Below are positions 11,842 to 57,605 of a DNA stretch of 64,000 bases, piece by piece; the stretch's first letter is position 1, and the number at the start of each line of letters is the position of its first letter. This stretch comes from Candidatus Saccharimonadales bacterium. GTDB lineage: Bacteria > Patescibacteriota > Saccharimonadia > QS-5-54-17. The notes beneath the pieces were generated by a model. That model did not search any database and was not told the origin of the DNA. It saw only the letters and a program-made list of their open reading frames with translations. Position numbers and translations under genes: made by a program. The stretch covers positions 599,633 through 663,632 of the forward strand of contig JBBDUI010000002.1 of assembly GCA_040903985.1 (NCBI GenBank), given 5' to 3'.

Positions 11842-11842
11842 T

Positions 11843-12085
11843 CTAGTATTCGTTCCTCATGGCATTAATAAAATCTAGTAATGCTGGTTTACGGTTCATG
11901 CCATATTTTTTGTTGAGTTCTTTAGTTTTGGCGATAGTTGCTTCGTTAATACGATATATTACTGGTTGAGCGAGCTGTTTGGCAGTTTCTCTATCTATTT
12001 CGCCCGTCCTATATTTGTGTTGAATAGTAGCGATATCAGCTCTGTTTTTGACTGCTTGCTCAATGTTCTTTTCCATACTTCGCAT
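11843..12085 (-). CDS. Small hypothetical protein (80 aa) ending 1 nt upstream of the macro gene start. Possible partner (toxin or regulator).
   Basis: ORF with 1-nt spacing to the macro gene. No motif. Confidence 0.35.
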   Translation of the reverse strand: MRSMEKNIEQAVKNRADIATIQHKYRTGEIDRETAKQLAQPVIYRINEATIAKTKELNKKYGMNRKPALLDFINAMRNEY

Positions 12086-12212
12086 TCTGTATAGAAAATT
12101 AGAGGAATGCGAGCCGTAAAGTAGCCTTTCTGAGCTATTCTCAGCCTCTCTACGCTGTGTTTAGTGCAGATTAATAACTATGGACTATAAACAGAGGTGT
12201 TTATAGCGTACA

Positions 12213-16023: not shown

Positions 16024-16777
16024 TTTCAAACAAGTCGCATACGACATTCTAAAAGAAGCCGGTAACCCACTCCACAGTAAGGAGATTACTAAATTAGCAC
16101 TCCAACGAGGATTGCTAGTAACAGACGGCAAAACACCAGAGGCAACCATGAACGCTCAGCTAGTGGTTGATATTAATAAAAAAGGTATCAAATCAAAGTT
16201 TATCAAAACAGCCCCTTCAACATTTTATTTGAACGATAATTCTGAACCCATTGAAACAAAAGAAGAAATAGCAGAAGAAGCTAAAAAAGAAGCTGTCATC
16301 TCAAACGTATCATCAAAGCAGAAAGGCGATATTGCTGAGGCTAGAGTTGCCGAACTTATCACCCTCTACGGTGATAATGAGGTGTCTTGTTTCAAGCCAA
16401 TTTCCGATGACGAAGGAATTGACTTAATTGTAAAGCCTAAGGGGCAATTGAAATCACTGTATATTCAAATCAAGTCACGATTTGGCAGTAACCCAAGTGA
16501 AATATTCACCGCTACTGTCAAAGCCTCAGGGGTAGTAGAAAATTATTCAATGGTCTACTTGTTTTGCTACTTTGATACTTCAACTGGCGATATGTGGGAC
16601 TATGTATGGCTTGTCCCTGCACCAGACTTCAAACGGCTAGCGAACAATCTTCAAGGCGGTAGTTTGTATGGATTTGTAGCAGGTAGGAAAAAATCGGACA
16701 GTAATAAATGGGACCAGTATCTCATACACAAAACCGACTTATCGGAGTCAATAATTAATCAACTTTCAAGACTGTAG
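16010..16777 (+). CDS. HARE-HTH domain fused to a PD-(D/E)xK-type endonuclease domain (restriction-endonuclease-like).
   Basis: N-terminus FKQVAYDILKEAGNPLHSKEITKLALQRGL...KTPEATMNAQL matches the HARE-HTH pattern. C-terminus D-EGIDLIVKPK...IQIKSR is a D..E.D..K nuclease core. Confidence 0.55.
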   Translation: MQQNSFKQVAYDILKEAGNPLHSKEITKLALQRGLLVTDGKTPEATMNAQLVVDINKKGIKSKFIKTAPSTFYLNDNSEPIETKEEIAEEAKKEAVISNVSSKQKGDIAEARVAELITLYGDNEVSCFKPISDDEGIDLIVKPKGQLKSLYIQIKSRFGSNPSEIFTATVKASGVVENYSMVYLFCYFDTSTGDMWDYVWLVPAPDFKRLANNLQGGSLYGFVAGRKKSDSNKWDQYLIHKTDLSESIINQLSRL

Positions 16778-16788
16778 ATTTGTAAATT

Positions 16789-18261
16789 ATGTACCTGTCT
16801 AAATCTGACTTCCTAAAATATCAATGTTGTCCAAGTTATCTATGGCTATGGAAATACAAAAAAGAAGTCGTACCCGTAGATGATGAGGAAGCAATTAATC
16901 AGCGACTAGAACAAGGTAATGAAGTTGAGCGTTTTGCTCGTGGCTTATTTCCTAACGCTGTTCTGGTTGGTTCTTACGGTAAGAAGGCTCGTAACGAAAC
17001 CGAGAGGCTTGTAAGTAATGATGTGCAAGCAATATTCCAAGCTACTGTTTATACAGACAAAGAATTATTGGCAATGGCAGATATTATTGAATTTGATGAA
17101 GCCACGCAATCTTGGGATTTGTACGAAGTAAAATCTACCAACTCTGTTAAAAAAGAACATATATATGACCTTGCTTTTCAGCGAGTGGCATTTGAAGACG
17201 CTGGCTATAAAATTGGTAAGGTAATTGTCATTCATTTAGATAAAACTTACGTTCGCAAAACAGCAGTAGAGCCATCTGAACTTTTAACGCAAACCGATGT
17301 TACAGAAAAGGTTGAAAAAATACTACCAACAATACGGCAACAAGCCTATGACGCTATTGAAGTATTAAAACAAAACGATGAGCCAAAAAAGTGTAGTTGT
17401 AGACTTAAAACTCGTTCAGGACACTGCTCGACATTTAATTATCTTAATCCCGATATTCCTGAGTATTCTGTTTTTAATATTTCAAGAATAGGTGCTAAGA
17501 ATCTGGCAGTACTTGTAGATGGAGACATTCATAACGTACATGATGTACCAGAGGACATAAAACTTTCTATTGGTCAGAAAAATCAAGTACTGGTGGCTAG
17601 GAGTAAAGAGCCGATTATAAACAGGCCAGCTATTCAAGAATTGTTAAGCGAACTTGAATTTCCTCTTTATTTCCTAGACTACGAAACCGTTTCATCGGCC
17701 TTACCAATGTTTAATGGCTGTACACCATTCCAACAAATACCGTTCCAGTATTCTTTACACGTTCTGAGAGAGCCTGACGGCGAACTTGAGCATTATGAGT
17801 ATCTTGGGCGTGATAGCACCAATCCACCAATGCCAGAGCTACTCGCAAGCCTACAGAACAATATCGGAGATACAGGTAGCGTTATTGTTTGGTATAAAGT
17901 CTTTGAAACAGGACGCAACACAGAAATGGGTAAAGCATTCCCTGAATACGCGGAGTTCCTTGAGGGCATAAATAATAGAGTGTTTGATCTAATGGACATA
18001 TTCAGTAAACAGCATTATGTACACCACGATTTCAAAGGCAGTAGCTCAATCAAATATGTGTTACCAGTCCTTGTGCCTGAGTTCTCATACAAGGAAATGG
18101 ATATACAGAACGGATTAGTCGCTTCAATACGGTGGTATGACGCCGTTATGGGTGCAGTAGACGAAGAACAAGCCCAAAAGACTTACGAAGCACTCTTGAA
18201 GTACTGCTGTTTAGATACTTTGGCAATGGTTAAGATTTACGAATACTTAAAGAAACTATAA
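16789..18261 (+). CDS. Cas4-like / RecB-family PD-(D/E)xK nuclease with Fe-S cysteines, fused to a C-terminal domain of unknown function (DUF2779-like).
   Basis: N-terminal YQCCPSYLW. MADIIEFDE...LYEVKS (D..E.K). C-x-C-x8-C cluster CSCRLKTRSGHC. 490 aa. Confidence 0.55.
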   Translation: MYLSKSDFLKYQCCPSYLWLWKYKKEVVPVDDEEAINQRLEQGNEVERFARGLFPNAVLVGSYGKKARNETERLVSNDVQAIFQATVYTDKELLAMADIIEFDEATQSWDLYEVKSTNSVKKEHIYDLAFQRVAFEDAGYKIGKVIVIHLDKTYVRKTAVEPSELLTQTDVTEKVEKILPTIRQQAYDAIEVLKQNDEPKKCSCRLKTRSGHCSTFNYLNPDIPEYSVFNISRIGAKNLAVLVDGDIHNVHDVPEDIKLSIGQKNQVLVARSKEPIINRPAIQELLSELEFPLYFLDYETVSSALPMFNGCTPFQQIPFQYSLHVLREPDGELEHYEYLGRDSTNPPMPELLASLQNNIGDTGSVIVWYKVFETGRNTEMGKAFPEYAEFLEGINNRVFDLMDIFSKQHYVHHDFKGSSSIKYVLPVLVPEFSYKEMDIQNGLVASIRWYDAVMGAVDEEQAQKTYEALLKYCCLDTLAMVKIYEYLKKL

Positions 18262-18311
18262 GTTAAACGTAAGCAATATAGTTATCAACCAAACAACGAT
18301 ACAATAATCTT

Positions 18312-19787
18312 ATGGTTGCAAATCAACAAAAAGGAAAACAACTAATAACTCTCAATGAGCATATTGGTGTACCTGTAGAAAAACTTGAAGAACTGGGTAT
18401 CCTAAACGCAATAATCGGCATAGATACTAAATTATTCATTGACCCTAAGTTGATAAATGTTACTGATATACCTGAACTTGATAATGTTGTAGAGGACATT
18501 CGTGCCTATGTTCGTAAACTGATATCTGTAAATAATCAGGCAGCAAAATCCGAACGTATTAGACAGATTGCAATAAAGATGATTGCCATTGAAGAACCAA
18601 AAGGTCTATCAATCGGTTACGGAAACAGCAGGGATAGTGGTACTTCCATTTCAGAAAGTGTGGCAAGGAAATCACTGCAATCATTATCTGAAATGATTTC
18701 AATCGGTGTAGAAGACCTTGAAGTTATGGAAATGCTAGGACTGTTTATAAGCAGATTCGGAGCTGACAGCATTAGTGATTTAATATCACACATCATTTAT
18801 CCCCGACTTTGTGCGTATACCCAAAGAGTCTCAAAAGAACTTGGTATAAAGGTTAAGGTATTTGAAATAAACGAAGCAAAGTATAACCTACCTGCACACC
18901 CCAAAAAAGATACTCCGCTTATTTTTGTTCCATTAGTGATATTGAGCGAACTTCCATTGGCGACTAGTTGGGAAGAAATTGCAGTTGCCGCCCAGTTAAA
19001 CGAAAAATGCAGACAAGCCTTTAACGACTTAGTCGGAGCCGATATTGCAAATTACGCAAAAAAGATTAAGAAGAACCCAGCACTTGTTACTGGTTCAATT
19101 GAAGCAATGAAAACCCTTATAGCCATCTATGACGAAGCTGTTGTAAGACCATATGATAGACAAAAAGACCCCGCTGGATACGTTCGTCTAAGCAAATTCG
19201 CGGCACAACTTAACGACAAGCTGCAATCACCAAACACGGTTATTAAAAATACAAACGAAATGGTTGAGTTTATTGACGGACAAGTAATAGACCAGTTTCG
19301 TCGTAATATTGAAAAACTAGGAGCTAACACCTTGCTGTACCACCGAAAAGGTGAATCTCCTGATTATTTGAAGCCAGTCAGAGAAGACGCTGCACAGATT
19401 ATTTTCCATACAGCTGCTGACCACATCTGTCAAAATAACGACATTTTGGTAAGTAGGGAGCCAGCGGTTGGTAATGGTGCTGTGGATTTCACAATTGGTC
19501 AAGGTTCTAGCAATAAGGCGGTCGTTGAAATTAAAAAATCAAACAATAAGAACCTGATTGACGGATATAATTTACAATTACAAGAGTATGTGGAACGAGA
19601 GAAAGCGGCTATCGCATTCTATGTAGTTGTATTAGTAACTCAAGCAAGTGTGGATAACAAAGATTCACAGTTGAACGAACTTAAAAAAATGTATGCTTCT
19701 AAATTACGCAAAAAAGAACAATGCCCAAGATTAGTAATTATTAATGGTCTTGAACAATTAAGCCCAAGTAAGATGAGGAGCAATTAA
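18312..19787 (+). CDS. Hypothetical 491-aa protein with a C-terminal PD-(D/E)xK-like motif.
   Basis: GNGAVDFTIGQGSSNKAVVEIKKS (D-x13-E-x-K) near the C-terminus. The rest is unrecognised. Confidence 0.4.
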   Translation: MVANQQKGKQLITLNEHIGVPVEKLEELGILNAIIGIDTKLFIDPKLINVTDIPELDNVVEDIRAYVRKLISVNNQAAKSERIRQIAIKMIAIEEPKGLSIGYGNSRDSGTSISESVARKSLQSLSEMISIGVEDLEVMEMLGLFISRFGADSISDLISHIIYPRLCAYTQRVSKELGIKVKVFEINEAKYNLPAHPKKDTPLIFVPLVILSELPLATSWEEIAVAAQLNEKCRQAFNDLVGADIANYAKKIKKNPALVTGSIEAMKTLIAIYDEAVVRPYDRQKDPAGYVRLSKFAAQLNDKLQSPNTVIKNTNEMVEFIDGQVIDQFRRNIEKLGANTLLYHRKGESPDYLKPVREDAAQIIFHTAADHICQNNDILVSREPAVGNGAVDFTIGQGSSNKAVVEIKKSNNKNLIDGYNLQLQEYVEREKAAIAFYVVVLVTQASVDNKDSQLNELKKMYASKLRKKEQCPRLVIINGLEQLSPSKMRSN

Positions 19788-20039
19788 CTAAGTAATCAAA
19801 TCTGCCGACAGATTAAATTGCCTTACTAAATCCTGTAACTTATAATTGTCTACATTGCCTTGGTTAGCGGTTAGAAATACACCAGCTATCCGGCACCAAA
19901 TGCTTAATTATCAAACTATGAACAAACCCTGACTACTTTATTGAAGCTGAGTATGGACAATAACCCTAGACTGCACAGTTGCGCCATCAACCATAACCGC
20001 TGTAGAGTATGGATATAACAAACGGTAGTAAAACATTCT

Positions 20040-21407
20040 ATGCCCCGCCTACCAATCCCCGGATCAGACGAAGGAACATGGGGTGATATCCTCAACGAGT
20101 TCCTCAGCGTCGAACTAGCTAGTGATGGCTCTCTCAAACGCGGTACCGAGCTAACCCAGAAGCTCAACCGTAGTGGCGACACCATGGGCGGCAATCTCAG
20201 TCTTGGTGGAAACCGTATCATCGGGTTAGCCGACCCCACCAACGCTACTGATGCGGCTACTAAGAACTATGTAGATACAGCTGATATAGCATCCCACACC
20301 ACCACCCACCAATCCGGCGGAACTGACGAACTGAACGTCGATGGCCTCTCCGGTGAATTAGCCGACCCTCAAATACCGAAAGGCCACTCACTGGGTGGTA
20401 TAGAACACAGTGCTACCACCCTGGCTGCCCTCAACGCCAAGCTCAGTGACGCCACCCTTGATGATGCCAGTGCTACTCGTACCCCAACTGAGCACGGTAA
20501 TGAAGCCCATTCCGCTACCTTCATCACGGCTGCCGAAGCCCCTGTTCAGTCCGTCAACGGTAACACCGGTATTGTTTCACTCGATGCCAGTGATGTAGGA
20601 GCTGATCCCTCCGGTACCGCTACCACAGCTGTTACTGATCATGAGGCAGCAGCAGATGCACATTCAGCTACCAGCATTGAGTTCGATCCGACCGGCCTTT
20701 CATACACTACAGCGATAGATGTCCAACAAGCCATCACCGAGCATGATCAGGCGATTGGTGATGGTACGTCGGGGCCGCCGCAGGTAGACACGTTCACAGC
20801 GTCGGGGACATGGGTCAAGCCGACCGGAGCGAAGCTTGTCGTTGCTCATGTCGTTGCTGCCGGTGGGGGAGGATCAGAACAGGATGGGTTCGGCGACGGT
20901 GGCGGAGGTGGGGGCGGGTCGCTACTCATTGTTGTATCCGCTGATGAACTTGATGCGACCGAGATAGTCACGGTCGGCTCAGGAGGGGCTGGTGCAACGG
21001 CCGGTGCATCGGCGGGTAATGGTGGCAGCAGCGCTTTCGCAGGCTACAGTGTCACCGGCGGGGGAGGATCGCGTAACCCTACAGGAAACAGCAAAGGTGG
21101 CGGGCACGACGGAGGTGCCGGCAGCTCTGGTGGAGCCCCCGTCGGTGCAGCTTTTGGTGGTGGTGGGGGGGGCCGGAGTTCGGGCTCGGCAATCCCTGGG
21201 GCTGGTTCGGTCTACGGCGGCGGCGGCGGTAGTACAAATGGAGCAGCCGGTGGGCCTTCGACGTTCGCTGGTGCAGGTGGTGTTGGGTCGACTGGCAGCG
21301 GAACGGGCGGTGCGGGCGGCATTCCCGGCGGCGGCGGCGGCGGGTCGCTGACTGGAACGGGCGGAGCAGGTGCCCGTGGCGAGGTTCGTATTACAACCTA
21401 CTTCTGA
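20040..21407 (+). CDS. Tail-fibre-like protein (455 aa) with a C-terminal Gly-rich module.
   Basis: MPRLPIPGSDEGTWGDILNEFLSVE leader. GDTMGGNLSL...TNATDAATKNYVDT collar. FTASGTWVKPTGAKLVVAHVVAAGGGG followed by about 200 aa of Gly-rich sequence ending GGAGARGEVRITTYF. Confidence 0.7.
   Translation: MPRLPIPGSDEGTWGDILNEFLSVELASDGSLKRGTELTQKLNRSGDTMGGNLSLGGNRIIGLADPTNATDAATKNYVDTADIASHTTTHQSGGTDELNVDGLSGELADPQIPKGHSLGGIEHSATTLAALNAKLSDATLDDASATRTPTEHGNEAHSATFITAAEAPVQSVNGNTGIVSLDASDVGADPSGTATTAVTDHEAAADAHSATSIEFDPTGLSYTTAIDVQQAITEHDQAIGDGTSGPPQVDTFTASGTWVKPTGAKLVVAHVVAAGGGGSEQDGFGDGGGGGGGSLLIVVSADELDATEIVTVGSGGAGATAGASAGNGGSSAFAGYSVTGGGGSRNPTGNSKGGGHDGGAGSSGGAPVGAAFGGGGGGRSSGSAIPGAGSVYGGGGGSTNGAAGGPSTFAGAGGVGSTGSGTGGAGGIPGGGGGGSLTGTGGAGARGEVRITTYF
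21165..21172 (+). repeat. G8 homopolymeric tract inside the Gly-rich coding region of 20040..21407.
   Basis: Read directly (tggtGGGGGGGGcc). Confidence 0.8.
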
Positions 21408-40003: not shown

Positions 40004-40987
40004 ATGTCTAGACTTCCTATTCCCGGCTCTGACGATGGAGTCTGGGGAGACATTCTAAACGAATACCTCCAGCACGAGCATAACGAGGATGGTACGCATA
40101 AAACAGTTCCTGTTTCCAGGGGCGGTACCGGTGCTATCAACGCTTCTGCCGCTAGAACAAACTTGGATGCTGCAGCTAGCGATCATAACCACGATGTCGA
40201 TTACGAAGTCGCCGGAGCAGTCTCTACTCATGCTTCCGAGGTTACAAGTGTGCATGGTATCGCTGACACCTCAGTGCTTGAAACTACTACCGGTGCTCAA
40301 GGTAAGGTGGATACCCATGCCTCCGATACAACAAGTGTCCACGGCATAGCCGATACTTCGGTCCTCGAGACTTCAGCCGGTGCTCAAGCAAAAATTGATG
40401 CACACACCGAGGCAAGTGATCCTCACTCTAATTACTTAGATACGACTCGCCATGAGGCTTTAGACCACTCCTCTGTACTTGCTACAGCCGCCTTATCAGA
40501 CCTCGGATCACTGGATGCCGGTTCGAGCAGAATCACAAATATAATCGACCCATCCAGCCCTCAGGACGCCGCAACAAAAGATTATGTAGATACCAATATT
40601 CCTTCAGCATTAAATGACTTGTCTGATGTTGATACTTCGGGCGGATCCGAGGGCGACTCTCTTACTCAGCAGGCTGATGGAACGTTTGCACCGCAGCAAA
40701 ACACGCACCCTACAAGCCTTCGCCCGCATACCTCAACGCTAGGCCCAGTGGCGTACAGGATGTCGAGAACCGGAAAGGATGAAAACGGTATTTTCACTAC
40801 GGTTAACTGGCATCGTCCTGACGACACCCTTGCCGTTCAGTCGGTACTGTCGGGTGGAACAACACCAACCTATACTGCTCGAACAGTTACGGAATATGCA
40901 GCAAATGGTGTCGATGTGTTGGAAACCACGACCTACACGCTTTCTTACGATGGTGACGGTGATCTTATTGCGGAGATATTCGCATGA
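40004..40987 (+). CDS. Tail-fibre-like protein (327 aa) with internal tandem approximately 27-aa repeats.
   Basis: MSRLPIPGSDDGVWGDILNEYL leader. Repeats TSVHGIADTSVLETTTGAQGKVDTHASDT appear twice. ATKDYVDT collar motif. Confidence 0.7.
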   Translation: MSRLPIPGSDDGVWGDILNEYLQHEHNEDGTHKTVPVSRGGTGAINASAARTNLDAAASDHNHDVDYEVAGAVSTHASEVTSVHGIADTSVLETTTGAQGKVDTHASDTTSVHGIADTSVLETSAGAQAKIDAHTEASDPHSNYLDTTRHEALDHSSVLATAALSDLGSLDAGSSRITNIIDPSSPQDAATKDYVDTNIPSALNDLSDVDTSGGSEGDSLTQQADGTFAPQQNTHPTSLRPHTSTLGPVAYRMSRTGKDENGIFTTVNWHRPDDTLAVQSVLSGGTTPTYTARTVTEYAANGVDVLETTTYTLSYDGDGDLIAEIFA

Positions 40988-41646
40988 TTAGTATGCTCGA
41001 CGCACATGGCATCGTTGGCGGCGGAGGTAATGCAGAGAAAGTTCTAATGAGTCAGGCATTTACTGTATCTGGACAGTTCGTCGTACCTAGCGGAGTTACT
41101 GAGATATTAATCTCTGCTATTGGCGCTGGCGGGGGTGGCGGGTATGCCCATAATGGAGGATATGGCTGGTCGATGCGAGGCGGCGGCGGAGGTAGTGGTT
41201 ACTACTTTCCAAAGACTCGATACACCGTTACGCCAGGTATCACTCTGACGGTTACTATTGGCTCGGGCGGGGCAGGCCAATCTAGTGGAAATTCTTCCCC
41301 TGGCCCCGGTGGTAGTACTGTAGTTTCTGGCACGGGAGTATCAATTACTGCTGGCGGAGGAGCAGCGGGTAATGGTGCTGCTGAAGGCAATCCTGGGTCT
41401 GGCACAGGTTCTAGTCACTTTTGGCGGGGTGGGGCGGCTGGACGTGCAGGCTACGTTCAGAACGGCAGTGGTTCTGGTGCAGGCGGAGGTCCGTTAGGTG
41501 GAGCGAGTAAGACGTCGGGAGGCTCGGGCAATGCTGGTGGAGTAGGATCCGGTGGAAGCGGTGGGCATAACTCAACAGGTAGCGGGAGTGTCTACGCTGG
41601 TGGAGCAGGAGGTCGTGGAGAAGTCTTGATTGAGTGGTACGAATAA
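40984..41646 (+). CDS. Gly-rich tail-fibre C-terminal module encoded as a separate ATGA-coupled gene (220 aa).
   Basis: FTVSGQFVVPSGVTEILISAIGAGGGGG...GGAGGRGEVLIEWYE is homologous to the C-terminal half of 20040..21407. Confidence 0.6.
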   Translation: MISMLDAHGIVGGGGNAEKVLMSQAFTVSGQFVVPSGVTEILISAIGAGGGGGYAHNGGYGWSMRGGGGGSGYYFPKTRYTVTPGITLTVTIGSGGAGQSSGNSSPGPGGSTVVSGTGVSITAGGGAAGNGAAEGNPGSGTGSSHFWRGGAAGRAGYVQNGSGSGAGGGPLGGASKTSGGSGNAGGVGSGGSGGHNSTGSGSVYAGGAGGRGEVLIEWYE

Positions 41647-42652: not shown

Positions 42653-43339
42653 ATGTCAGAAACTAACTCACGTCATCAGTCAGCTCAGCATTTTGAGCTA
42701 CACCATGAGGATAATGGTGAGGCTATTGTCTGTATGTCGCATGATAACGAATGCTCGGTTTTAGCGCAGATTGCCGCCGAGTATTCCGATGTTGAGGAAG
42801 AGTTTTTAGCAACTTCAGTAGAGCAGGCTCTGTCTGCTATCGATAATTACATGGAGGGACGGGCGAGCGAGGTATTTCAGGGACTACATATAGTTCTAGG
42901 GGAGGATCTGACTTCGGGTGGTGCGGAAGCGTTACCCGCAGAAAATCGAGTTTTGCTTAATGGTAGAAAGCTATCGATGAGCATAGCTGACATGCGCAAT
43001 ACTCTCGATTCGTATAGTGACGATGAACTGACGGGTGGAAGTATAGATGAGCACGATCCTAGTGGAGCACTGCAGTACACATTAGTACATGAGATGGGGC
43101 ACATATTAGATGAGAGAACTTTGACCGGTGAATCCCGCCATCGAGTAGATGCGGGTGAAAGTCCCACAGCGTATGGCCGTGTACCTGATGAGTGGCATGA
43201 TGAGAAGGATCATGAAGCATTTGCTGAAGGGTTTGCGCACCTAGTTTTCGGAATACCGGTCAGCTCTGTCTTAGAAACTGCCGTCGCGGAAACTATAGAG
43301 TCGCGGCTAGATGAGGTTGACGCCGCTAAGACTCAGTAA
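42653..43339 (+). CDS. Putative HExxH zinc metallopeptidase (start moved to internal Met 42653).
   Basis: TLVHEMGHILDE HExxH motif. Confidence 0.45.
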   Translation: MSETNSRHQSAQHFELHHEDNGEAIVCMSHDNECSVLAQIAAEYSDVEEEFLATSVEQALSAIDNYMEGRASEVFQGLHIVLGEDLTSGGAEALPAENRVLLNGRKLSMSIADMRNTLDSYSDDELTGGSIDEHDPSGALQYTLVHEMGHILDERTLTGESRHRVDAGESPTAYGRVPDEWHDEKDHEAFAEGFAHLVFGIPVSSVLETAVAETIESRLDEVDAAKTQ

Positions 43340-43562
43340 AAGACTGTTTTCTTTTCTGGGTAAGCTTAACATATCTATATATGGAGTAGCTTAGAGTTGC
43401 CACTACGACAACCATTATCAGCCAACCGCCACCAGTAGTCGGCAGGGAGTCCGGTAGAGTAATACCACCCGATTCGGTAGTCTCATTGTACTCTTGTGCC
43501 CCATAGGTGCTGGTGCCATACTGGGAAATCATACGAAGTGCTAAAAGTGTTATCTGATCCAT
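43326..43562 (-). CDS. Small (78 aa) LPxTG-type sortase substrate-like protein.
   Basis: C-terminal LPTTGG, then a hydrophobic stretch WLIMVVVVATLSYSI and a basic tail KLTQKRK. Confidence 0.45.
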   Translation of the reverse strand: MDQITLLALRMISQYGTSTYGAQEYNETTESGGITLPDSLPTTGGGWLIMVVVVATLSYSIYRYVKLTQKRKQSFTES

Positions 43563-43651: not shown

Positions 43652-43828
43652 GTGCCAGGATTAGGATTAACAGAATTACTAGTAATATTAGGTATATTGA
43701 TGCTACTTTTCGGCTCTAAGAAGTTGCCGGAATTAGCGAAGAGCATAGGAAGCTCAGTCCAAGAACTACGCAAGGGAGTGAGTACGGAGCCTAAGAGCGA
43801 CGACTCTAAAGACGATACGACTCTATAG
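43652..43828 (+). CDS. tatA: Twin-arginine translocase subunit TatA/E (58 aa, GTG start).
   Basis: Manual translation gives PGLGLTELLVILGILMLLFGSKKLPELAKSIG, the canonical TatA TM plus FG-KKLP hinge. RBS GAGGGA upstream. Confidence 0.7.
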   Translation: MPGLGLTELLVILGILMLLFGSKKLPELAKSIGSSVQELRKGVSTEPKSDDSKDDTTL

Positions 43829-43853: not shown

Positions 43854-44936
43854 ATGGGTATGAGTAGTGGGACATACCAACAGACGTTACTTGACCATCT
43901 AGTTGAGCTACGTCAGCGTCTGTTTTGGGTGGCATTGACGTTAGTATTCGCATCTGCAGCGGGTTATTTGATATTGGATCAGATAATAGATGTATTGATG
44001 AGTCCTCTGGCCACTGACCAGCCGCTAATTTACACCTCTCCGGCCGGTGGATTGGAGTTTCTGTTTAAGATCTGCTTATTTTTTGGCTTTTTACTGACAA
44101 TACCGGTCCTGCTGTACCACATAATTAAGTTTATCGAGCCGATGATATTTAAGCAGTCGGTGCGCTCACTGATCACTTTGATCAGTGTTTCTATTATACT
44201 GATGGTCCTGGGGGCCAGTTTCGCCTATTTCGTCAGCCTACCGGCGGCGCTGCACTTTCTAACCGGTTTTAATACTGATCAACTACAGGCGTTGCTTTCG
44301 ACGAATGAATACCTATCATTTGTCATGATTTACGTCGCCGGTTTCGCCCTGATATTCCAGCTGCCGTTGCTGATGATATTTATCAATCGAATTAACCCAC
44401 TACAGCCACAGAAGTTATGGTCGACTATGCGTTATGTGATAGTTATCAGTTTTATCGTAGCCGCTATTATCACCCCTACACCGGATCCTATGAACCAGGC
44501 CCTAATGGCTGGTCCAATTATAATTATGTATATCATCGGTGTTGGCGCTGTCTGGTTGATTAATCGGAGTAAGGCAGTGTCGGTTACTGACCCTGATATT
44601 GACCCCAGTTATTTCGACAATCTAACTGAGACGGCTAGTGAATTAAGACCGGAGACTCCGGTAATCGGTCCAAGCCTTTGCGGTGCTAACTCTACTTCAG
44701 TAATAGATTATTCTCAGGCTAACGCTGAGTTACGAACCGAGACATCTAACTTACTTGATTTGACGAGCCGACCCCGAGCGAAACTTCAAGCAGCAGAAAC
44801 TGTTGTGGACTTACCCCTGGTAGTGCCGGGCGCTCCTCTTGCCCCGCATATTGCAGATAGTGATTCTGGGCCAACTGTAAAACCGCCACTCCGACCGCGA
44901 ATAGGGTCGTCTCACGTGCTTGATCCGCGCAGCTAG
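43854..44936 (+). CDS. tatC: Twin-arginine translocase TatC with a roughly 110-aa C-terminal extension.
   Basis: HLVELRQRLFWVAL N-terminus. 6 TM helices. 360 aa against a typical 250. Confidence 0.8.
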   Translation: MGMSSGTYQQTLLDHLVELRQRLFWVALTLVFASAAGYLILDQIIDVLMSPLATDQPLIYTSPAGGLEFLFKICLFFGFLLTIPVLLYHIIKFIEPMIFKQSVRSLITLISVSIILMVLGASFAYFVSLPAALHFLTGFNTDQLQALLSTNEYLSFVMIYVAGFALIFQLPLLMIFINRINPLQPQKLWSTMRYVIVISFIVAAIITPTPDPMNQALMAGPIIIMYIIGVGAVWLINRSKAVSVTDPDIDPSYFDNLTETASELRPETPVIGPSLCGANSTSVIDYSQANAELRTETSNLLDLTSRPRAKLQAAETVVDLPLVVPGAPLAPHIADSDSGPTVKPPLRPRIGSSHVLDPRS

Positions 44937-45021
44937 CTTGACAGCGCCTGCCAGACTAGTATTATAAGAATAAGCGTAAAGCAAAATTGAAGCAAAATAA
45001 AAAACTAAAAAGGAAACAACA

Positions 45022-45219
45022 ATGAATTCCAACGACACCAAACAAGCTATTACTAATATAGTTAACACTCCGATGGATCGAAAACAGTTCCTGACCTATG
45101 TCGGCGCCGGCGCAGTAGCGGTATCGGGCATTAATGCCGGACTTAAGCTATTTAGTGGCAACAAAAGAGGTATAGGTACTGTAACTAGTGGTTACGGCGG
45201 TAGCGCTTACGGCGCCTAG
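45022..45219 (+). CDS. Small protein (65 aa) with a Tat-like RK-QFL signal region, directly downstream of tatAC.
   Basis: DRKQFLTYVGAGAVAVSGINA resembles a degenerate twin-arginine motif plus h-region. Confidence 0.3.
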   Translation: MNSNDTKQAITNIVNTPMDRKQFLTYVGAGAVAVSGINAGLKLFSGNKRGIGTVTSGYGGSAYGA

Positions 45220-45628
45220 TCGTAGCAGATTGTTCTACGTTTTACGAAACAAGCGTAAACATAGCGAGGGTAGAAATTAAAGATTTACCTGGCGTTAAGA
45301 CTCTTATATGTTATTAGCTTAGAGAATTAAAATTACAATTTGGTTTATCTTACCTTCCAGCACTAAGCGAAAAATTGCTATAAAGGCTTCAGCTTGAAGT
45401 AGCGGCATACTTTAGTACTTATGCTAGAATGTGGTGCGTAATGAAAGGTTGATGAAGTGATAGTTGCTGATATACACAAACTTGCAGCGATTACTCTTGA
45501 AATTAAAATTGATTTGGCCAGGATTACTGCAAATGTTATCAGTATCAGCTGGGTTTCTCGTACTACTGCAGCTAGCCTCACCATGAGAGATGAGGCAGCA
45601 TTTTTTATACACAGAGTGAGAGTCTGTA

Positions 45629-47155
45629 ATGGCAGTTATTGATACCTCAACCGTATCTACCGCCACAGCTTACAGCAATCAGCGTAAGGTTGATCGATGT
45701 CAGAATGGTGTACTTTGGTCGTTCTTTAATAATGGTTCTGGAGTAGTTGAACCTTGGTATTCAGAAGATGATGGGGTTACTTGGACGAACGGAGGCGCTA
45801 ATTTCTCTACCAACAACGCTTCATATACTCCTAATTTCTCAGTATTCATTGATTTAGATGATTATTGCCATGTTGTGTATAAGAACGGTAACTCTGGGTA
45901 TATTGAATATCGACGAGGAACACCAAACGCTGGACGCACTGCCTGGACTTGGACGAGTGCACATGAAGTTTTTGGTCATGCATCCTTCAACTATCCCGAT
46001 CTTGTCGCTCACCGGGAGGGGAGTGGCTGGGCTGTTCATCTAGCGGCGGGGTACGTAACTACAGGCTATGCCCAGATGTACGGCCACCGTTTCGATATTG
46101 ACTCAGGGGGAACTATTACTCCGGTATCATTGGGTGTCATAACGAATAACTATAATAGTGGTGTACAGCTCTTTCCTTCCATCGATTTTAATCATACTGG
46201 TGACGGGAAAACTGTGGCTGGGAGCACTCCACATATTTATATGGCTTGGTCGGCTGGAGCCACCGGCACTGGTAATGGTGTTCGGTTCAAGAAAGCTACC
46301 TATTCCGGTGGCTCATGGACGTGGGGCACTGAACGGGAGATTGATTCAACTAGGTACTTCCCATTCTCTAATAGAAATGCAGTATGCTTATTTGACGGCA
46401 CAAGGGTTATTATTGCTGGTCACGTGTATGATGCTAGCGGTAATGATGATATCGTACTATATGAACGTGATGTAGCAGACACTACTACAACTACTCGTAT
46501 TTTATTAGATAATGCTAATTCTAATCAATGGCATTTGGTCGGCTCATATACCTATGACGGTGAAGGCAATGTGTATTATTTTGGAGTAAATAACGGTGAA
46601 TTAATCTACCGTAAGTGGGTTAGAGCTACTACCACATTTGAAGCAGAAGTTATTATTGACAGCACTAATATAAGTAATAGTGCGGCTTGGGTATCAACGA
46701 AACGCGGCCACTCTAGCAACCGTATCGAGTACATCTACACCGATGGCGTTTCATCCCCATATAATATTACTTACGGTTCAATCCTACTTAACACTGCGCC
46801 CACTACCCCAACTATTCTTACACCGATAGTAAATGAGCGAGTTCACCATAACAGTATAGACTTCTCCTGGAGCTTTAACGATCCTGACGGCGGAGACTCT
46901 CAAAGTGCCTATGCCCTTCGGCGACAGCTCGATGGTGGGAGTGAAGAGTGGTGGGATGGTAGCACTTGGGTGGGTAGCGAGGTATTTGTCTCAACTGCTA
47001 GTACTACAGTGTCTATTCATTCCGACACTTTCGAGTCTGGTACCTATAGTTGGAGTGTGGTTACCCAGGATCAGGCCGGTGCAACTTCCGGCTACTCAAT
47101 ACCTCAGAACCTTAAGATTATTCGCTTTGAGCGGTGGGGAGCGGTACAGATATGA
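45629..47155 (+). CDS. BNR/Asp-box (sialidase-like beta-propeller) protein with a conserved C-terminal Ig/FN3-like domain ending FERWGAVQI.
   Basis: Asp-box YSEDDGVTWTNG. The C-terminal 110 aa are paralogous to the C-terminus of 47218..48195. Confidence 0.55.
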   Translation: MAVIDTSTVSTATAYSNQRKVDRCQNGVLWSFFNNGSGVVEPWYSEDDGVTWTNGGANFSTNNASYTPNFSVFIDLDDYCHVVYKNGNSGYIEYRRGTPNAGRTAWTWTSAHEVFGHASFNYPDLVAHREGSGWAVHLAAGYVTTGYAQMYGHRFDIDSGGTITPVSLGVITNNYNSGVQLFPSIDFNHTGDGKTVAGSTPHIYMAWSAGATGTGNGVRFKKATYSGGSWTWGTEREIDSTRYFPFSNRNAVCLFDGTRVIIAGHVYDASGNDDIVLYERDVADTTTTTRILLDNANSNQWHLVGSYTYDGEGNVYYFGVNNGELIYRKWVRATTTFEAEVIIDSTNISNSAAWVSTKRGHSSNRIEYIYTDGVSSPYNITYGSILLNTAPTTPTILTPIVNERVHHNSIDFSWSFNDPDGGDSQSAYALRRQLDGGSEEWWDGSTWVGSEVFVSTASTTVSIHSDTFESGTYSWSVVTQDQAGATSGYSIPQNLKIIRFERWGAVQI

Positions 47156-47217
47156 TACTAATCGTTCATTATCACCGTAGAATAAGTATTGATTATGTGA
47201 GAAAAGAGATACAGTAA

Positions 47218-48195
47218 ATGTCAGCACCCTCTTTCGTAAACTCAGCTTACTATAATAGCGGTGGCGGTTTGAATGCCACGGTCAATAAGCCTACCGGTAC
47301 TGGCTCGGGACACCTAATGCTCGCTTTTATTCATACCGGGGGTGACAACCCGACTAGCATAACTGCTCCGTCTGGCTGGTCGACACTACAAAGTCATTTC
47401 GCTCAGTACGTAGGATTTGCGTGCTTCTATAGGTGGGCAGGATCATCAGAACCTTCATCCTATCAGTTTAGTTGGAATAGCAACGGATGGGGTGTAGGCG
47501 GAATCCTGACCTTCTCTTCGGTCGGCTCTATCGGTAGTAGTGCAAAAAATTATACTTCTGGTACGACAGTTAGTGTCAGTGCGCCCTCACTTGCGATGAA
47601 TGCTAATTCGGTACTTGTAGCTGGATTTGGATTTAAGGGTAATGGATCGGTCTCTTCACCTTCCGGTATGACAGAGAGAATCGATGCGCCCCACACAAAT
47701 AACAACTACCCGACTACGCTAGGGGCATCTACGCAAGATTACCTTTCAGCGGCTTCCTCAGGGGCAAAGACAGCGACAATATCCGCATCATCAGACAGAA
47801 GCGCGGCTGTATCGGTAGAGTTACTAGGCACCAACTCTAACCCAGACACACCAACTCTTCTTACCCCGGCTGACAATCTTCGACAGCAGGGCGGGAATGT
47901 AGACTTTAGTTGGTCTCATTCTGATCCAGATGGCAACCCACAAGCCGCCTATGCTCTTCGTCGTCAAAAGATTGGTGATAGCTATGAGTGGTGGAATGGG
48001 TCTAATTGGGTTGCTACTCAAACATTTGTTAGCTCATCTACAGGGTCGGCCACTATTGATGCATCAACGTTTGAGAGAGGTGTGTATACATGGAGCGTTG
48101 CCACTCGTGACAGCATGAATGCTACTAGTGCATATTCTTCGCAGCGGACATTAGAAGTCATTAAGTTTGAACGGTGGGGAGCGGTACAGATTTAA
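47218..48195 (+). CDS. Paralog of 45629..47155: different N-terminal domain, same C-terminal domain (ends FERWGAVQI).
   Basis: Shared C-terminal block FSWSxxDPDG...AYALRRQ...WW.GS.WV...FVS...FE.G.Y.WSV.T.D...YS..Q.L..I.FERWGAVQI. Confidence 0.55.
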   Translation: MSAPSFVNSAYYNSGGGLNATVNKPTGTGSGHLMLAFIHTGGDNPTSITAPSGWSTLQSHFAQYVGFACFYRWAGSSEPSSYQFSWNSNGWGVGGILTFSSVGSIGSSAKNYTSGTTVSVSAPSLAMNANSVLVAGFGFKGNGSVSSPSGMTERIDAPHTNNNYPTTLGASTQDYLSAASSGAKTATISASSDRSAAVSVELLGTNSNPDTPTLLTPADNLRQQGGNVDFSWSHSDPDGNPQAAYALRRQKIGDSYEWWNGSNWVATQTFVSSSTGSATIDASTFERGVYTWSVATRDSMNATSAYSSQRTLEVIKFERWGAVQI

Positions 48196-48318
48196 GGTAC
48201 TTATCTGTTGTTTGTGTTGGTTATACATAGTAAAATAGACGCAAGCGTGAAGACCTACATATTCTTCTGGTAGTGCGCTCCAATAATATTTACTAAAAAC
48301 TAAAAGCAAGGGATAGAG

Positions 48319-49608
48319 ATGCCACGTTTACCGATACCGGGTTCTGATGAAGGAACATGGGGTGACCTCCTCAATGAGTTTCTTGAGGTAGAACATAGTG
48401 CTGACGGTACTCTAAAACTCACCGATACTATAGCTAGTAAATATGTGAAGCCCACTTCCGGTATTCCGAAGTCAGATCTAGCCGCCCCGGTTCAGTCTTC
48501 ACTTGATGCGGCCGATGCCGCAGCGGCACAATCGGCTTTGGATGATCATGTTAACGACACTTCGGCCGCCCATGCTGCTTCAGCTGTTTCATTTGCGCCA
48601 GCTGGTGCTATCTCGGCTACTACGGTGCAGGCGGCTATTGAAGAAGTGGCAACGGAAGCAGGCTCTTCGATCACTTTATCTGATGCTAGCCCTTCAGCCC
48701 TAGCAGCGGCCGCAGCTGCTGGTGTGTCAAATGAGATATCTCGCCATGACCATGTCCATCCCGATACCGGTTTAGCTACTGAGACGGCTCTCGATAGCCA
48801 TACTACTGCTACCACTGGCGTGCATGGTATTGCGGATACATCAGTACTTGAGACTAGTACCGGTGCTCAGACTAAAGTTGACGCCCATGCTGGAGACACT
48901 ACCGCCGTGCACGGTATTGCCGATACTTCAGTATTAGAGACGACCACTGGAGCACAGGCTAAGGTAGACGTACATACTGGAGACGGCGTTGATGCCCATG
49001 CTGCTACAGCTATCTCTTATGATAATACGGCCTCAAGTCTAACTGCTACTGACAGCCAAGCGGCTATCGATGAGTTAGTAACTACGTTATCCAGCACTCA
49101 ATTAGCCGACCTCGCCGATGTGGTTGAGACTGCTGCAAGCGATGGGCAGGTTTTAACCTTTGACACCACCAACGGTTGGCAGCCAGAGACTCCAGCAGTC
49201 GGGATAACCAGTCATAGCGGCTTAAGCGATCTTGGAGCTGATGATCATCTCCAGTACCAGATCGCCGATATAGCGCAGTTTGCTAGGGAGGGCACTCTAT
49301 CGGTGGCTAGTGGACGTGGCCGCTACCGTTTTCCTTATACTGCTACTATCTTGGGTGTCTCAGCCGCCGTCGATACGGCGCCGGTTGGATCCGGGATAAC
49401 GATCGATGTGAACAAGAACGGCACCACTATCTACACCACTCAGGGCAACCGTCCTAGTGTAAGTGATGGAACTAACGATGCTGCTGAGACTACACCGGAT
49501 GTCACTGCCGTGGCTAGTGGTGATCATTTAACAGTAGATATCGATACGGTTGGCTCATCTACTCCGGGAGCGGATTTGACGGTTTTCGTCCGTTATGCAC
49601 GAGCCTAA
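48319..49608 (+). CDS. Tail-fibre-like protein (429 aa) of the conserved-leader family.
   Basis: MPRLPIPGSDEGTWGDLLNEFLEVE leader. The same approximately 27-aa repeats (TTGVHGIADTSVLETSTGAQTKVDAH) as in 40004..40987. Confidence 0.7.
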   Translation: MPRLPIPGSDEGTWGDLLNEFLEVEHSADGTLKLTDTIASKYVKPTSGIPKSDLAAPVQSSLDAADAAAAQSALDDHVNDTSAAHAASAVSFAPAGAISATTVQAAIEEVATEAGSSITLSDASPSALAAAAAAGVSNEISRHDHVHPDTGLATETALDSHTTATTGVHGIADTSVLETSTGAQTKVDAHAGDTTAVHGIADTSVLETTTGAQAKVDVHTGDGVDAHAATAISYDNTASSLTATDSQAAIDELVTTLSSTQLADLADVVETAASDGQVLTFDTTNGWQPETPAVGITSHSGLSDLGADDHLQYQIADIAQFAREGTLSVASGRGRYRFPYTATILGVSAAVDTAPVGSGITIDVNKNGTTIYTTQGNRPSVSDGTNDAAETTPDVTAVASGDHLTVDIDTVGSSTPGADLTVFVRYARA

Positions 49609-51517: not shown

Positions 51518-53101
51518 CTAGTTAAGACTAGTTGCTTGGGGTCTGCGCCGCCGAGAGATGAGGCTGCGGATATCGTAGCGCCATTCCCAGACACCATAGC
51601 CAGCGGCTAAGAGTACAACTACCCCGGCCACCCACCAGGAAAGTGGCGTACCTGTTGATTCGACTTTTATATCTTTAACGCCAGCTATAGTGCCGTCATT
51701 GGGAGCTCCGACTCGGCGACAGCGATTAGTCTCCGGATTACGCTCTTGATCGGGTCCGCACGGCACCAGTTCAGAGGTAGCGGCTGCAATCTTTCGACAG
51801 CGATTAGTGTCTGGGTTGCGCTCTCTACCGGGACCGCAATCGGCTAGCTCTGAGGTAGTAGGAGCGATATTACGACAGCGGTTGGTCTCCGGATTGCGCT
51901 CCCGTCCCGGTTCACAAGGGATTAAACTGGAGGTCGCAGTTACTACATTTCTACAACGGTTAGTCTCCGGATTTCGACTTTGTCCTTCTGGGCAAGGGCG
52001 GAGTGGTAATATCTCATTTAGTGCATTCGGTGTCGGAGTATATGTTAGTGCCCAGTCATCTCCATCCAGCCAAGCCCAGGCTGCATCGTCCGGCATGGCA
52101 GCCGGATAGCTGGCACTGTATAGCTCGTCCGTATCGGAATTAAGTAGAAATACCGTACCGCCAGAAGAAATAGTAAGCCAGACGTCGGTTTCGTAATCGT
52201 AGAAGGCGCGGTAGCTCCCCGGTGACAGTGTAATATCGTTGAACCAATAGATATTATCGTTGTGGGTGCTTTGGAGTCCGCAGCCCGCTAGATCAATAAT
52301 GTCCGTGGTGGGGTTATAAATTTCTATGAACTGCCGGCCGGTCGCTGCCCCTTCCGGATTAGCGAAGATCTCCGATATTACGACTTCTTCACAGGGTGAG
52401 TCGGAGCTACTCCCTGTATCAGTCTCTTCATCGTCCTCAATTTCGTCCTGGGCCGTCGTGCAGGCCTGCTTGAGGCCGGGCTGCGGGGTTTCACTAACAT
52501 GGAAATCGTGTGAATTATCTCGAGTATCGACTATATCGTCTCCATTAAAACAGCGATGGATCGACTGACCAGCTGCTGGTGGAGGGGCTGGAGCTCCGAG
52601 GTAATATTCCGGCATACCATAACCTACCATATCGACAACAGCAGCGGACTCATCTAATAGCTGTAGAGTACCGTCGTTATAATTAAGCCCTAAAGTCGAC
52701 CCGAGCGTGATAAAAAAGTCCGCCTCAGCCAAGTAGCTCTCTCGACTGACGATAAAGTACTCACCCGGCTCTATCTCATAGTGTAGTTCAAGCGCAGGGT
52801 CGTCGTTAAATTCGGCGATGAACCGACTGCTACTACCACTTTTATTAGTGAACTTAAGCCGCCAACCGTCTAGCGATACTGTCATCTCACTTGCGTTGTA
52901 CAGTTCGACAAATTCATCCGTACCAACTGAGCCGCCAGCATTATTCACGCCACGAGTTTGTAAGCCGCTAATTAATACGACGGGATCCTCAGGCAGCGGA
53001 TCGGTGACGTCTTCACTGGCATAAATCTGGTTATTCACTGGCATAAGCCCCAGCGTTAAGACAGCAAATATAGGCAGTATAAGTTTCCCCATAAACTTCA
53101 C
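51518..53101 (-). CDS. Secreted, membrane-anchored protein with two lamin-tail domains (LTD) and about 3.5 Cys-containing 26-aa tandem repeats.
   Basis: Signal peptide. LTD signatures DEFVELYNAS...LDGWRL and RQFIEIYNPT...LAGCGL. Repeats CxPGRERNPETNRCR. C-terminal TM. Confidence 0.6.
   Translation of the reverse strand: MKFMGKLILPIFAVLTLGLMPVNNQIYASEDVTDPLPEDPVVLISGLQTRGVNNAGGSVGTDEFVELYNASEMTVSLDGWRLKFTNKSGSSSRFIAEFNDDPALELHYEIEPGEYFIVSRESYLAEADFFITLGSTLGLNYNDGTLQLLDESAAVVDMVGYGMPEYYLGAPAPPPAAGQSIHRCFNGDDIVDTRDNSHDFHVSETPQPGLKQACTTAQDEIEDDEETDTGSSSDSPCEEVVISEIFANPEGAATGRQFIEIYNPTTDIIDLAGCGLQSTHNDNIYWFNDITLSPGSYRAFYDYETDVWLTISSGGTVFLLNSDTDELYSASYPAAMPDDAAWAWLDGDDWALTYTPTPNALNEILPLRPCPEGQSRNPETNRCRNVVTATSSLIPCEPGRERNPETNRCRNIAPTTSELADCGPGRERNPDTNRCRKIAAATSELVPCGPDQERNPETNRCRRVGAPNDGTIAGVKDIKVESTGTPLSWWVAGVVVLLAAGYGVWEWRYDIRSLISRRRRPQATSLN
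51717..51995. repeat. About 3.5 copies of an imperfect 78-bp tandem repeat inside CDS 51518..53101.
   Basis: Unit starts at 51717, 51795 and 51873 (cgacagcgattagtctccgg...). Confidence 0.75.
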
Positions 53102-57050: not shown

Positions 57051-57605
57051 ATGCCCATCACTGATCTCGCTACCAATCCCTTCTGGCTGCTGTTCTATAG
57101 CACCGGTCAGCTGGCAGGTGTCATCGCTATCGCCCTGGTGGTCGTATTCCTGCGCGCCCTATGGGTGAAGAGGAAGGTCACGCTTCTGTCCGTCAGCTAC
57201 CTTGGTGCCGCCGGCGTCATGGGCCTCGCTACCTACGAGCTGTCCGCGTTCAGGATGCGATCACCGCTCGGGCCTATCCCAGGAGTAGCAGTCTTACTGC
57301 TGATCCTGTTGGTCGTGCTTGGCGGCAGACTCGTGCACGAGTCTGTGAACCAACAGCTGATCGGGTTGATGGTGACCTTCTTCATGGTGCTGGTTACTGC
57401 CGCCATGCTGGCTGAGCTACTGCCTGTAGGTATGGGCTCGGTGGCATTGGCCAACCTGCTGCTGTGGTTGGCGCTTCTGTTGGGGCTTGCGACGCTCTTG
57501 GTCCACTTCCGGCAACGACAGAGTCGAGACTCCCAGATCGCTCCTCGCAGTGGGTCACATCGGCGCGACACCTCTGGCTCCCGGATCGTCGATCAGTCGG
57601 CCTGA
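57051..57605 (+). CDS. Polytopic membrane protein encoded in an anomalously high-GC (about 60%) segment.
   Basis: 4-5 TM helices. Composition clearly differs from the flanks. Followed by a 14-bp-stem hairpin at 57615..57663. Confidence 0.45.
   Translation: MPITDLATNPFWLLFYSTGQLAGVIAIALVVVFLRALWVKRKVTLLSVSYLGAAGVMGLATYELSAFRMRSPLGPIPGVAVLLLILLVVLGGRLVHESVNQQLIGLMVTFFMVLVTAAMLAELLPVGMGSVALANLLLWLALLLGLATLLVHFRQRQSRDSQIAPRSGSHRRDTSGSRIVDQSA

Follow-up and report, generated by a model that had tools for sequence, protein, structure and literature searches.

What are two proteins with unrelated N-terminal regions, but the same C-terminal domain and the same nine final residues, doing beside a phage-like tail fibre gene in a bacterial chromosome? 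This question is raised by three open reading frames (ORFs), here called genes A, B and C, within a 64-kb stretch of DNA (the window) that forms part of a 739-747 kb contig from a Candidatus Saccharimonadales metagenome-assembled genome (MAG). The initial annotation of the window interpreted them as two sialidase-type BNR/Asp-box proteins, binding or degrading carbohydrates, whose common docking domain is attached to the neighbouring fibre, possibly at its leader or collar. The arrangement itself was confirmed: all three ORFs are present on the forward strand, separated by gaps of 62 nt between A and B, and 123 nt between B and C, and none has an N-terminal hydrophobic segment indicative of a signal peptide (maximum 15-residue Kyte-Doolittle mean below 0.75, compared with 2.3 in a neighbouring secreted protein). 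The association with a fibre gene was likewise upheld, whereas the sialidase identity and the docking to the leader were not. Instead, A, B and C would best be explained as a chromosomal copy of a siphophage tail-tip module, comprising minor tail proteins and a fibre. Phage tail-tip ancestry, and an architecture in which interchangeable heads are mounted on a constant FN3-plus-tail unit, can be assigned with high confidence; that the genes constitute a modular receptor-binding set of phage origin, which the cell has probably retained, is proposed with moderate confidence.

The similarity between A and B is restricted to their C-terminal 121 and 120 residues, in which 66/121 positions are identical (55%, E=2e-41), and their N-terminal regions are unrelated. 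The shared region consists of an immunoglobulin (Ig)-like domain followed by the tail FERWGAVQI. When scanned alone, the domain of A scores 30.8 bits against PF25788 (Ig_Rha78A_N), exceeding the gathering cut-off of 27.4, and that of B scores 13.7 bits; the modelled domain of B has structural matches to FN3 domains only. The shared domain is a generic FN3/Ig fold of the Rha78A-N type. PF25788 represents the N-terminal Ig-like domain of glycoside hydrolase family 78 (GH78) alpha-L-rhamnosidases, and many homologues of A carry a precomputed match to it, but A and B lack the GH78 catalytic domain, and in both the Ig-like domain is C-terminal, preceding a nine-residue tail that is outside the Pfam family. 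When 1.84 billion proteins were searched with a profile of the shared domain, 666 representatives matched at E<=1e-3, often with several copies per protein, meaning that neither the fold nor the domain subfamily is unique. In the same collection, tails of the form F-E-R-W-G-x-x-x-I were found in nine representatives, with those six positions invariant in 9/9. The N-terminal heads of the FERWG-tailed proteins, some of which are encoded by phages, are of at least four kinds (propeller, glycine-rich, B-like and a 'GFTP' type). Four are encoded by this genome, at two loci: A and B, and a 1001-aa propeller protein and 333-aa glycine-rich protein at L007, a cluster of diverged paralogues approximately 150 kb away.

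Why should such a short peptide be conserved? Over its 27 nt, the tails of A and B are identical at 25/27 positions, whereas the DNA encoding the shared domain is 57% identical between the two genes, with the same codon used at 34/66 conserved residues. In further paralogues and in phage homologues, the peptide is the same but its codons differ. Recent duplication or gene conversion was therefore rejected as the sole cause of the identical tails. A role as a cellular secretion or export signal was also rejected, as phage-encoded virion proteins bear the same tail. In the AlphaFold model of A, the predicted local distance difference test score (pLDDT) of the last ten residues falls to 53, in a model otherwise scoring 90 or above, suggesting the tail is not packed against the FN3 domain. 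Together, the differing codons, the presence of the tail on virion proteins assembled in the cytoplasm, and its unpacked state in the monomer model point to an assembly or docking peptide, which explains these observations better than a secretion signal or a gene conversion artefact.

Similar short ends are found on head proteins elsewhere, such as TFQGWGIPIN, GWGIPIGIS and GFGPIPLG (L035 10968..14444; P0024 and P0098), and FERWGAVQI may be one member of a broader class of C-terminal docking tails with the pattern W/F-G-x-x-x-I. Searching with a back-translated FERWG[AV]VxI-stop pattern matched the L016 contig only in IMG/VR; two matches in JGI metagenomes were attributed to chance, one being inside a dehydrogenase-like ORF and the other out of frame. 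Many B-like or A-type proteins end midway through an FN3 domain, after WxHNDPDGDxQxxYxxRxR (e.g. P0012, P0027, P0032 and P0054). At L016 7365..8156 and L007 6295..6996, the next ORF starts at or overlaps the stop codon and opens a complete new FN3 domain, and at L032 10001..11314 the overlapping next ORF opens with another propeller. These truncations could be recombination scars at conserved DNA, split or frameshifted genes, or functional half-domains.

The relatives of A place this architecture within phage tails. Genes of the A type were identified in at least 15 phage contigs, some of which also contain genes for portal, capsid, tape measure or lysis functions: L001 combines an A-type gene with portal, protease, capsid and tailspike genes; L032 has portal and tape measure genes, and two tandem propeller genes; and in L027 the A-type gene is the last before a lysis cassette of amidase and glucosaminidase genes. 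Thirteen loci with A-type genes were found in IMG/VR, most with a GC content of 59-69%, while a search of one genome from each of 185,579 species returned five loci only, in five phyla, a patchy spread as expected for phage-borne genes. No A homologue was detectable among 50,697 deposited phage genomes. The most informative relative is L016, a 39.6-kb viral contig in which a tape measure gene is followed by genes for a Dit-like protein with FN3 domains, a Tal-like protein, a 189-aa ORF and a 154-aa knob protein, and then by a B-like protein, an A-like protein ending GGFERWGAVFI, a 108-aa ORF and, on the minus strand, an amidase-type (lysin-like) gene, named from its sequence. The B-like protein is 34% identical to the N-terminal domain of B, and the 154-aa protein is homologous to the knob of C (E=5e-42). 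Hence L016 groups counterparts of A, B and C at the distal end of its tail block.

Proteins B and C have further phage relatives of their own. Residues 17-206 of B match phrog_553, annotated 'minor tail protein' (E=3.6e-7), and this domain is 41% identical, by tblastn and with partial cover of the phage protein, to part of gp22 of Rhodococcus phage Shagrat, encoded by a minor tail protein gene after the tape measure gene; a Mycobacterium prophage also yielded a tblastn match. Both the profile match and the presence of the domain in the tail module of a cultured phage place it in PHROG 553. Residues 328-424 of C match phrog_27064 (4.5e-14), and the knob also matches a structural protein from the virion of a Rhodobacteraceae phage. 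A profile of the knob found no match in the PDB. The knob homologue in the tail block of L016 identifies C as tail-fibre-like. Of the 243 homologues of C, several contain DUF5907 or Mtd_N. The shaft of C, as read from the sequence, is composed of Ala-rich stretches and two HGIADTSVLETxTGAQxKVDxH repeats. The protein opens with the leader MPRLPIPGSDEGTWGDLLNEFL, present in six ORFs of the window; it is conserved in other genomes of the candidate phyla radiation (CPR), where the family is found on large chromosomal contigs, and shares 58% identity with the N-terminus of a protein with collagen repeats from Streptomyces phage BRock.

Among cultured phages, copies of the leader were found only in BRock and four related Streptomyces phages. 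The BRock protein, gp186 (L033 5791..6738), is encoded in a tRNA array, outside the tail module; the start deposited for it is probably wrong, as it overlaps a tRNA-Lys gene and precedes the leader by 70 codons. In the window, the leader gene at 40004..40987 overlaps the start of a gene for a Gly_rich_2 protein (40984..41646), and that at 1721..2458 (-) abuts 1323..1721 (-). The partners of leader genes in other genomes include sulfatases, DUF4082 proteins and BNR-like proteins.

To which component of the fibre might A and B attach? The phage loci encoding FERWG tails, L016 and L027, have no leader gene, and neither does L007; conversely, the leader loci L026 and L028 have no copy of the shared domain. 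The initial annotation had itself named a generic Ig-like fold, lacking specific co-occurrence with leader genes, as the observation that would count against docking to the leader, and both were found. Rather, the recurrent partner of A-type genes is a fibre gene, twice with the knob of C. The two adjoin in four contexts: in the window; in L016; in L011, where a fibre with this knob directly precedes the A-type gene; and in L002, from another Saccharimonadales MAG, where the fibre is of the Mtd_N type and again directly precedes it.

This organisation resembles the minor tail and receptor-binding accessory proteins of actinobacterial siphophages. The A-type genes of L016 and L027 occupy the same position at the end of the tail block, before the lysis genes, and the proteins share FN3 domains, glycine-rich domains, beta-propellers and the B-type domain (as in Shagrat gp22), and lack signal peptides. 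Two differences are apparent. A, B and C belong to a bacterial chromosome and have no capsid, portal or terminase gene in their vicinity, and the polarity of A and B is reversed. Receptor-binding proteins usually have an N-terminal anchor and a C-terminal receptor-binding tip, whereas in A and B the C-terminus (FN3 domain and FERWGAVQI) is constant and the N-terminus variable. Tandem interchangeable specificity modules also recall phages with sets of several receptor-binding proteins on one docking segment, such as the tail fibre genes of L001, which all start MRKEFAG; in A and B, however, it is the other end of the protein that is conserved, and their partner is an inferred one.

Table 1. Coordinates of the genes, domains and motifs described in the text, given as positions in the window unless another locus is named
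Feature	Position	Strand	Remark
Gene A	45629..47155	+	ORF, 508 aa; 7-bladed beta-propeller head, FN3 domain and FERWGAVQI tail
A, residues 1-387, 7-bladed beta-propeller	45629..46789	+	Invariant residues include S71, D75, D77, D78, H81, R96, H189, R332 and R359
A, residues 45-52, single Asp-box SEDDGVTW	45761..45784	+	Pattern scan
A, residues 388-499, FN3/Ig-like domain	46790..47125	+	PF25788 match; 55% identical to B
A, C-terminal nonapeptide FERWGAVQI	47126..47152	+	pLDDT 53
Gene B	47218..48195	+	ORF, 325 aa; minor-tail-protein-like N-terminal domain, FN3 domain and FERWGAVQI
B, residues 206-316, FN3/Ig-like domain	47833..48165	+	Common to A
B, C-terminal nonapeptide FERWGAVQI	48166..48192	+	Direct repeat D5
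Gene C	48319..49608	+	ORF, 429 aa; leader, repeat-bearing shaft and C-terminal knob; tail-fibre-like
C, residues 1-35, leader MPRLPIPGSDEGTWGDLLNEFLEVEHSADGTLK	48319..48423	+	Six copies in window; aligned with CPR and BRock copies
C, residues 321-429, knob domain (109 residues)	49279..49605	+	53% identical to 154-aa protein of L016
Other leader ORF	40004..40987	+	
Other leader ORF	20040..21407	+	
Other leader ORF	2730..4232	-	
Other leader ORF	1721..2458	-	
Other leader ORF	599..1174	-	
TatA, 58 aa, GTG start	43652..43828	+	Context gene
TatC	43854..44936	+	PF00902, 1.3e-53; conserved neighbour
Small 65-aa protein, Tat-type signal	45022..45219	+	MDRKQFLTYVG and hydrophobic stretch; ends SGYGGSAYGA
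Small protein and Tat genes of L026	L026 6118..6315, 14169..15338		
Small protein and Tat genes of L028	L028 1..354, 16430..17218		

The head of A is a seven-bladed beta-propeller, and its identification as a sialidase is rejected. In the AlphaFold model, built on 48 homologues (pLDDT 93.9), residues 1-387 are all-beta, with 29 strands, and residues 388-499 form an Ig-like sandwich. Structural comparison identified the GH145, PL42 and PL25 enzymes and PLL-type lectins as the closest folds to the propeller; the resemblance to GH145 (5mum), the PL42 L-Rha-alpha-1,4-GlcA lyase (7esk), the PL25 ulvan lyase (5uam) and the PLL/BP39L lectins is in fold only. Predicted viral structures matching A include the propeller-plus-Ig proteins gp424-427 of Bacillus phage G, as well as a minor tail protein from a Mycobacterium phage. 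The sialidases of family GH33 have a six-bladed propeller, typically with three to five Asp-boxes and an FRIP motif. A has seven blades and one Asp-box, SEDDGVTW, which fits S-x-D-x-G-x-T-W and is nearly invariant in the 48 homologues (S45, D47, G49 and W52). No 'RIP' was read anywhere in its sequence, and no Pfam BNR or sialidase family matched at E<=0.1. The 48-homologue profile matched sialidases in the PDB at E values of 0.004-1, limited to profile positions 24-73 around the Asp-box, and nowhere beyond this motif. The description of two BNR/Asp-box proteins does not apply to B, as the pattern scan found no Asp-box in either B or C. Searches of the PDB by sequence found no match for A or C, and chance Ig matches only for B. 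A carbohydrate-related function fared better: a role in glycan binding or cleavage is plausible for the propeller as modelled, and the Asp, His and Arg residues invariant in the family (D75, D77, D78, H81, R96, H189, R332 and R359) are compatible with a putative catalytic, metal or sugar site. All 236 matches to the A family are annotated 'hypothetical'.

Combining these observations, the A/B/C module would function as a modular glycan-recognition complex. The head of A might bind or cleave a cell-surface polysaccharide, alongside the head of B, a domain known from actinophage minor tail proteins. The FN3 domain and exposed FERWGAVQI would act as an assembly or attachment unit, plugging interchangeable heads into one common partner, most likely the adjacent fibre, through its C-terminal knob rather than its leader, although another FERWG protein is a possible partner. 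The set would probably be kept for a function of the cell lineage, rather than merely decaying: retention is favoured by the intact ORFs in a reduced genome, the diverged paralogues, the conserved synteny, and the six leader genes in 64 kb. Several considerations weigh against this proposal. The protein-protein contacts are inferred, and at L007, the other FERWG cluster of the genome, no fibre gene adjoins. The model of the N-terminal domain of B reached a pLDDT of 65, too low to assign its fold, and the catalytic or binding site of the propeller is a candidate based on conserved residues only. Lacking signal peptides, the proteins would need an unproven export route for an extracellular role. 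The GC content at third codon positions (GC3) of A, B and C is 0.39-0.41, compared with 0.48-0.58 in housekeeping genes, which points to a foreign origin and is compatible with a prophage remnant. As the analysis covered approximately 85 kb of the 747-kb contig, structural genes of a phage or tailocin could be clustered elsewhere on it.

Is the locus itself a prophage? The genes around A, B and C encode RNase III, S16, TrmD, Ni-SOD, tRNA-Gln, TatA, TatC, a potassium channel, a lamin-tail-domain (LTD) protein, ComEC and VanY, and the set has housekeeping genes to either side. No capsid, portal, terminase, sheath, tube or baseplate gene was found in the Pfam context within 10 kb on either side or across the 64-kb window, no integrase was found at the A/B/C locus, and no att-like repeats were detected, including in a search around tRNA-Gln. 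The locus is not a recognisable prophage or tailocin within the window. The low GC3 of A, B and C makes a foreign origin likely. Between 40004 and 49608, the fibre-related genes and their neighbours have a GC3 of 0.37-0.43, with TatC intermediate at 0.48. Neither NCBIfam nor PADLOC matched A, B, C or the neighbouring genes, and assignment to a known defence system or named family is therefore unsupported.

The neighbouring genes also bear on how a fibre could reach the cell surface. Upstream of A are genes for TatA and TatC, of the twin-arginine translocation (Tat) pathway, and a small protein with a Tat-type signal (Table 1). Substrates of this pathway carry the motif S/T-R-R-x-F-L-K followed by a hydrophobic stretch; by motif inspection, the equivalents in the small proteins are D-R-K-Q-F-L-T in the window, D-R-R-E-F-I-K in L035, and S-R-K-E-F-L-R in L026. 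The order of TatA, TatC, small protein and leader-fibre gene is repeated in L035, a 323-kb contig (TatA, TatC and small protein at 8408..9926), where TatC is 40% identical to that of the window, the small protein (MDRREFIK...VGYGTSSYGG) is 36% identical (E=9e-11), and the fibre is 67% identical to C in its leader and 50% in its knob. The L035 fibre gene is followed by one encoding a 1158-aa DUF4082 protein ending GWGIPIN, and then by housekeeping genes. In L026 and L028, from another Patescibacteria MAG, a 65-aa SRKEFL...GYGSSVYGR protein (E=1e-8) accompanies leader genes and TatA-TatC, the TatC being 37% identical to that of the window, but the arrangement differs: the small proteins are at the upstream end of the cluster and TatA-TatC at the downstream end, and each leader gene is followed by a head gene, encoding a sulfatase or BNR-like protein. 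Small proteins of 65-72 aa with a C-terminal GYGxSxYG, together with TatA and TatC, thus lie near leader-family fibres in three deeply diverged CPR genomes. This conserved neighbourhood supports C-type fibres being kept as cellular genes, and suggests a possible route to the surface. At another leader locus, P0148, the nearest 8 kb contain no Tat gene. Tat has been reported to be exceptional among Saccharibacteria (PMC6031116).

A second small protein of the window, encoded at 43326..43562 (-), has QYGTSTYG near its N-terminus, followed by LPTTG, a motif of the sortase type, and then by a membrane segment and a basic tail. Its 73-aa counterpart at L026 6325..6546 combines GYGCQAYG with LANTG, a membrane segment and KKSK. 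As the LPTTG protein and the Tat-signal protein share YGxSxYG, they may form a matched pair of envelope-anchored peptides.

Three other explanations for the locus can be weighed against these data. Least credible is that A and B are two glycosidases of the sialidase (BNR) type, each with a generic Ig domain, which happen to lie beside a fibre gene. The well-conserved Asp-box of A and the marginal profile matches to the Asp-box regions of sialidases are what this would predict, but B has neither Asp-box nor propeller, A departs from GH33 in its blades, motifs and closest folds, and the recurrence of a fibre gene beside A-type genes in four contexts is at odds with a coincidental adjacency. This idea is largely refuted, and very improbable. 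It is considerably easier to envisage that the genes are the inert remnant or cargo of a former prophage, in which tail genes with no present function were left after deletion of the rest. Outside Saccharimonadales, the close relatives of A are all in phage-like contigs; GC3 is below that of core genes, a tRNA-Gln gene lies 3.8 kb upstream, and A, B and C have no export signals. Yet the three ORFs are full length and A keeps every family-invariant residue, in a strongly reduced genome (a 747-kb contig) where dead genes usually get lost. The tail peptide has been kept between paralogues only 57% identical in DNA, a second, diverged cluster 150 kb away has the same tail, the gene neighbourhood recurs in other CPR genomes, and the locus has neither an integrase nor an att site. 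A remnant is consequently judged quite unlikely.

The remaining alternative extends, rather than excludes, a retained receptor-binding set, by assigning the genes to a domesticated, Tat-linked surface fibre system. Here, the small protein would be exported by TatAC and stay in the membrane as an anchor or carrier, on which the signal-less, pre-folded C, with heads A and B, would hitch-hike or dock, enabling an epibiont to attach to host glycans. The recurrence of TatA, TatC, the small twin-arginine (RR) protein, and leader-fibre and head genes, in order in the window and L035 and rearranged in L026/L028, is consistent with such a system, as are the canonical DRREFIK of L035, the reported rarity of Tat in Saccharibacteria, the occurrence of the leader family on large CPR chromosomal contigs, and the density of six intact leader genes per 64 kb in a 0.75-Mb genome. 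However, this pattern comes from three lineages only, and these loci were reached via homologues of C, an ascertainment bias. With leader genes so dense in the window, some adjacency is expected by chance, and the P0148 locus has its leader gene without Tat. Furthermore, the motif in the window is RK, not RR, and the surface localisation is a prediction from gene order. We know of no precedent for a fibre hitch-hiking on a Tat substrate, which also counts against this mechanism. Overall, such a system is possible but unlikely. Its generalisation, that an accessory cassette of soil Saccharimonadia (TatA, TatC, the GYGxSxYG anchor, a leader fibre and heads) is a domesticated, Tat-exported or Tat-anchored attachment organelle setting host choice, is a doubtful, more speculative extrapolation.

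The preferred explanation, a phage-derived receptor-binding set retained by the cell, matters because little is known of host-cell recognition in CPR/Patescibacteria, which are ultrasmall and episymbiotic, beyond type IV pili and a few adhesins, whereas phage receptor-binding proteins are well-studied recognisers of bacterial surfaces. Studies of adhesion in Saccharibacteria do not mention tail-fibre-like proteins (PMC10633639, PMC11880426). An intact, multi-copy, modular set of receptor-binding proteins in a reduced Saccharimonadales chromosome is a testable candidate for host recognition, wherever such a complex might be deployed. In phages, the FN3 domain and FERWG tail would represent an uncharacterised tail-tip assembly module of inverted polarity, relevant to understanding and engineering host range. 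Phage receptor-binding modules are already known; it is the inverted polarity, the rare tail, and the Tat-linked chromosomal setting in CPR that set this one apart. If the set were a prophage leftover, the finding would be ordinary.

The sequences flanking these genes have some further features. Upstream of A is a 409-nt non-coding gap (45220..45628) with no Rfam match, and a sigma-70-like promoter match (11/12) at 44938..44965 lies further upstream, ahead of the 65-aa ORF; a scan for promoters and terminators gave counts at the level of shuffled sequence, and so did not inform on operon structure. The opposite outlier in GC3 is the gene at 57051..57605, at 0.74. A low-GC island at 8000..20000 (GC 0.36-0.40, compared with approximately 0.50), beside tRNA-Gly, encodes a serine recombinase, a DnaD/HTH protein, a Macro-domain protein, an MmeI-type restriction-modification enzyme, an Abi-alpha protein, a HARE-HTH/PD-(D/E)XK protein and a DUF2779 protein. 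As the window's sole mobile element, with a cargo of defence genes only, it has the appearance of an integrated defence island. Finally, the secreted LTD protein (51518..53101, minus strand) contains four 78-nt tandem repeats at 51717..51976; these encode a unit that includes Cys (C.PG.ERNPETNRCR), and beyond them is a C-terminal membrane segment.

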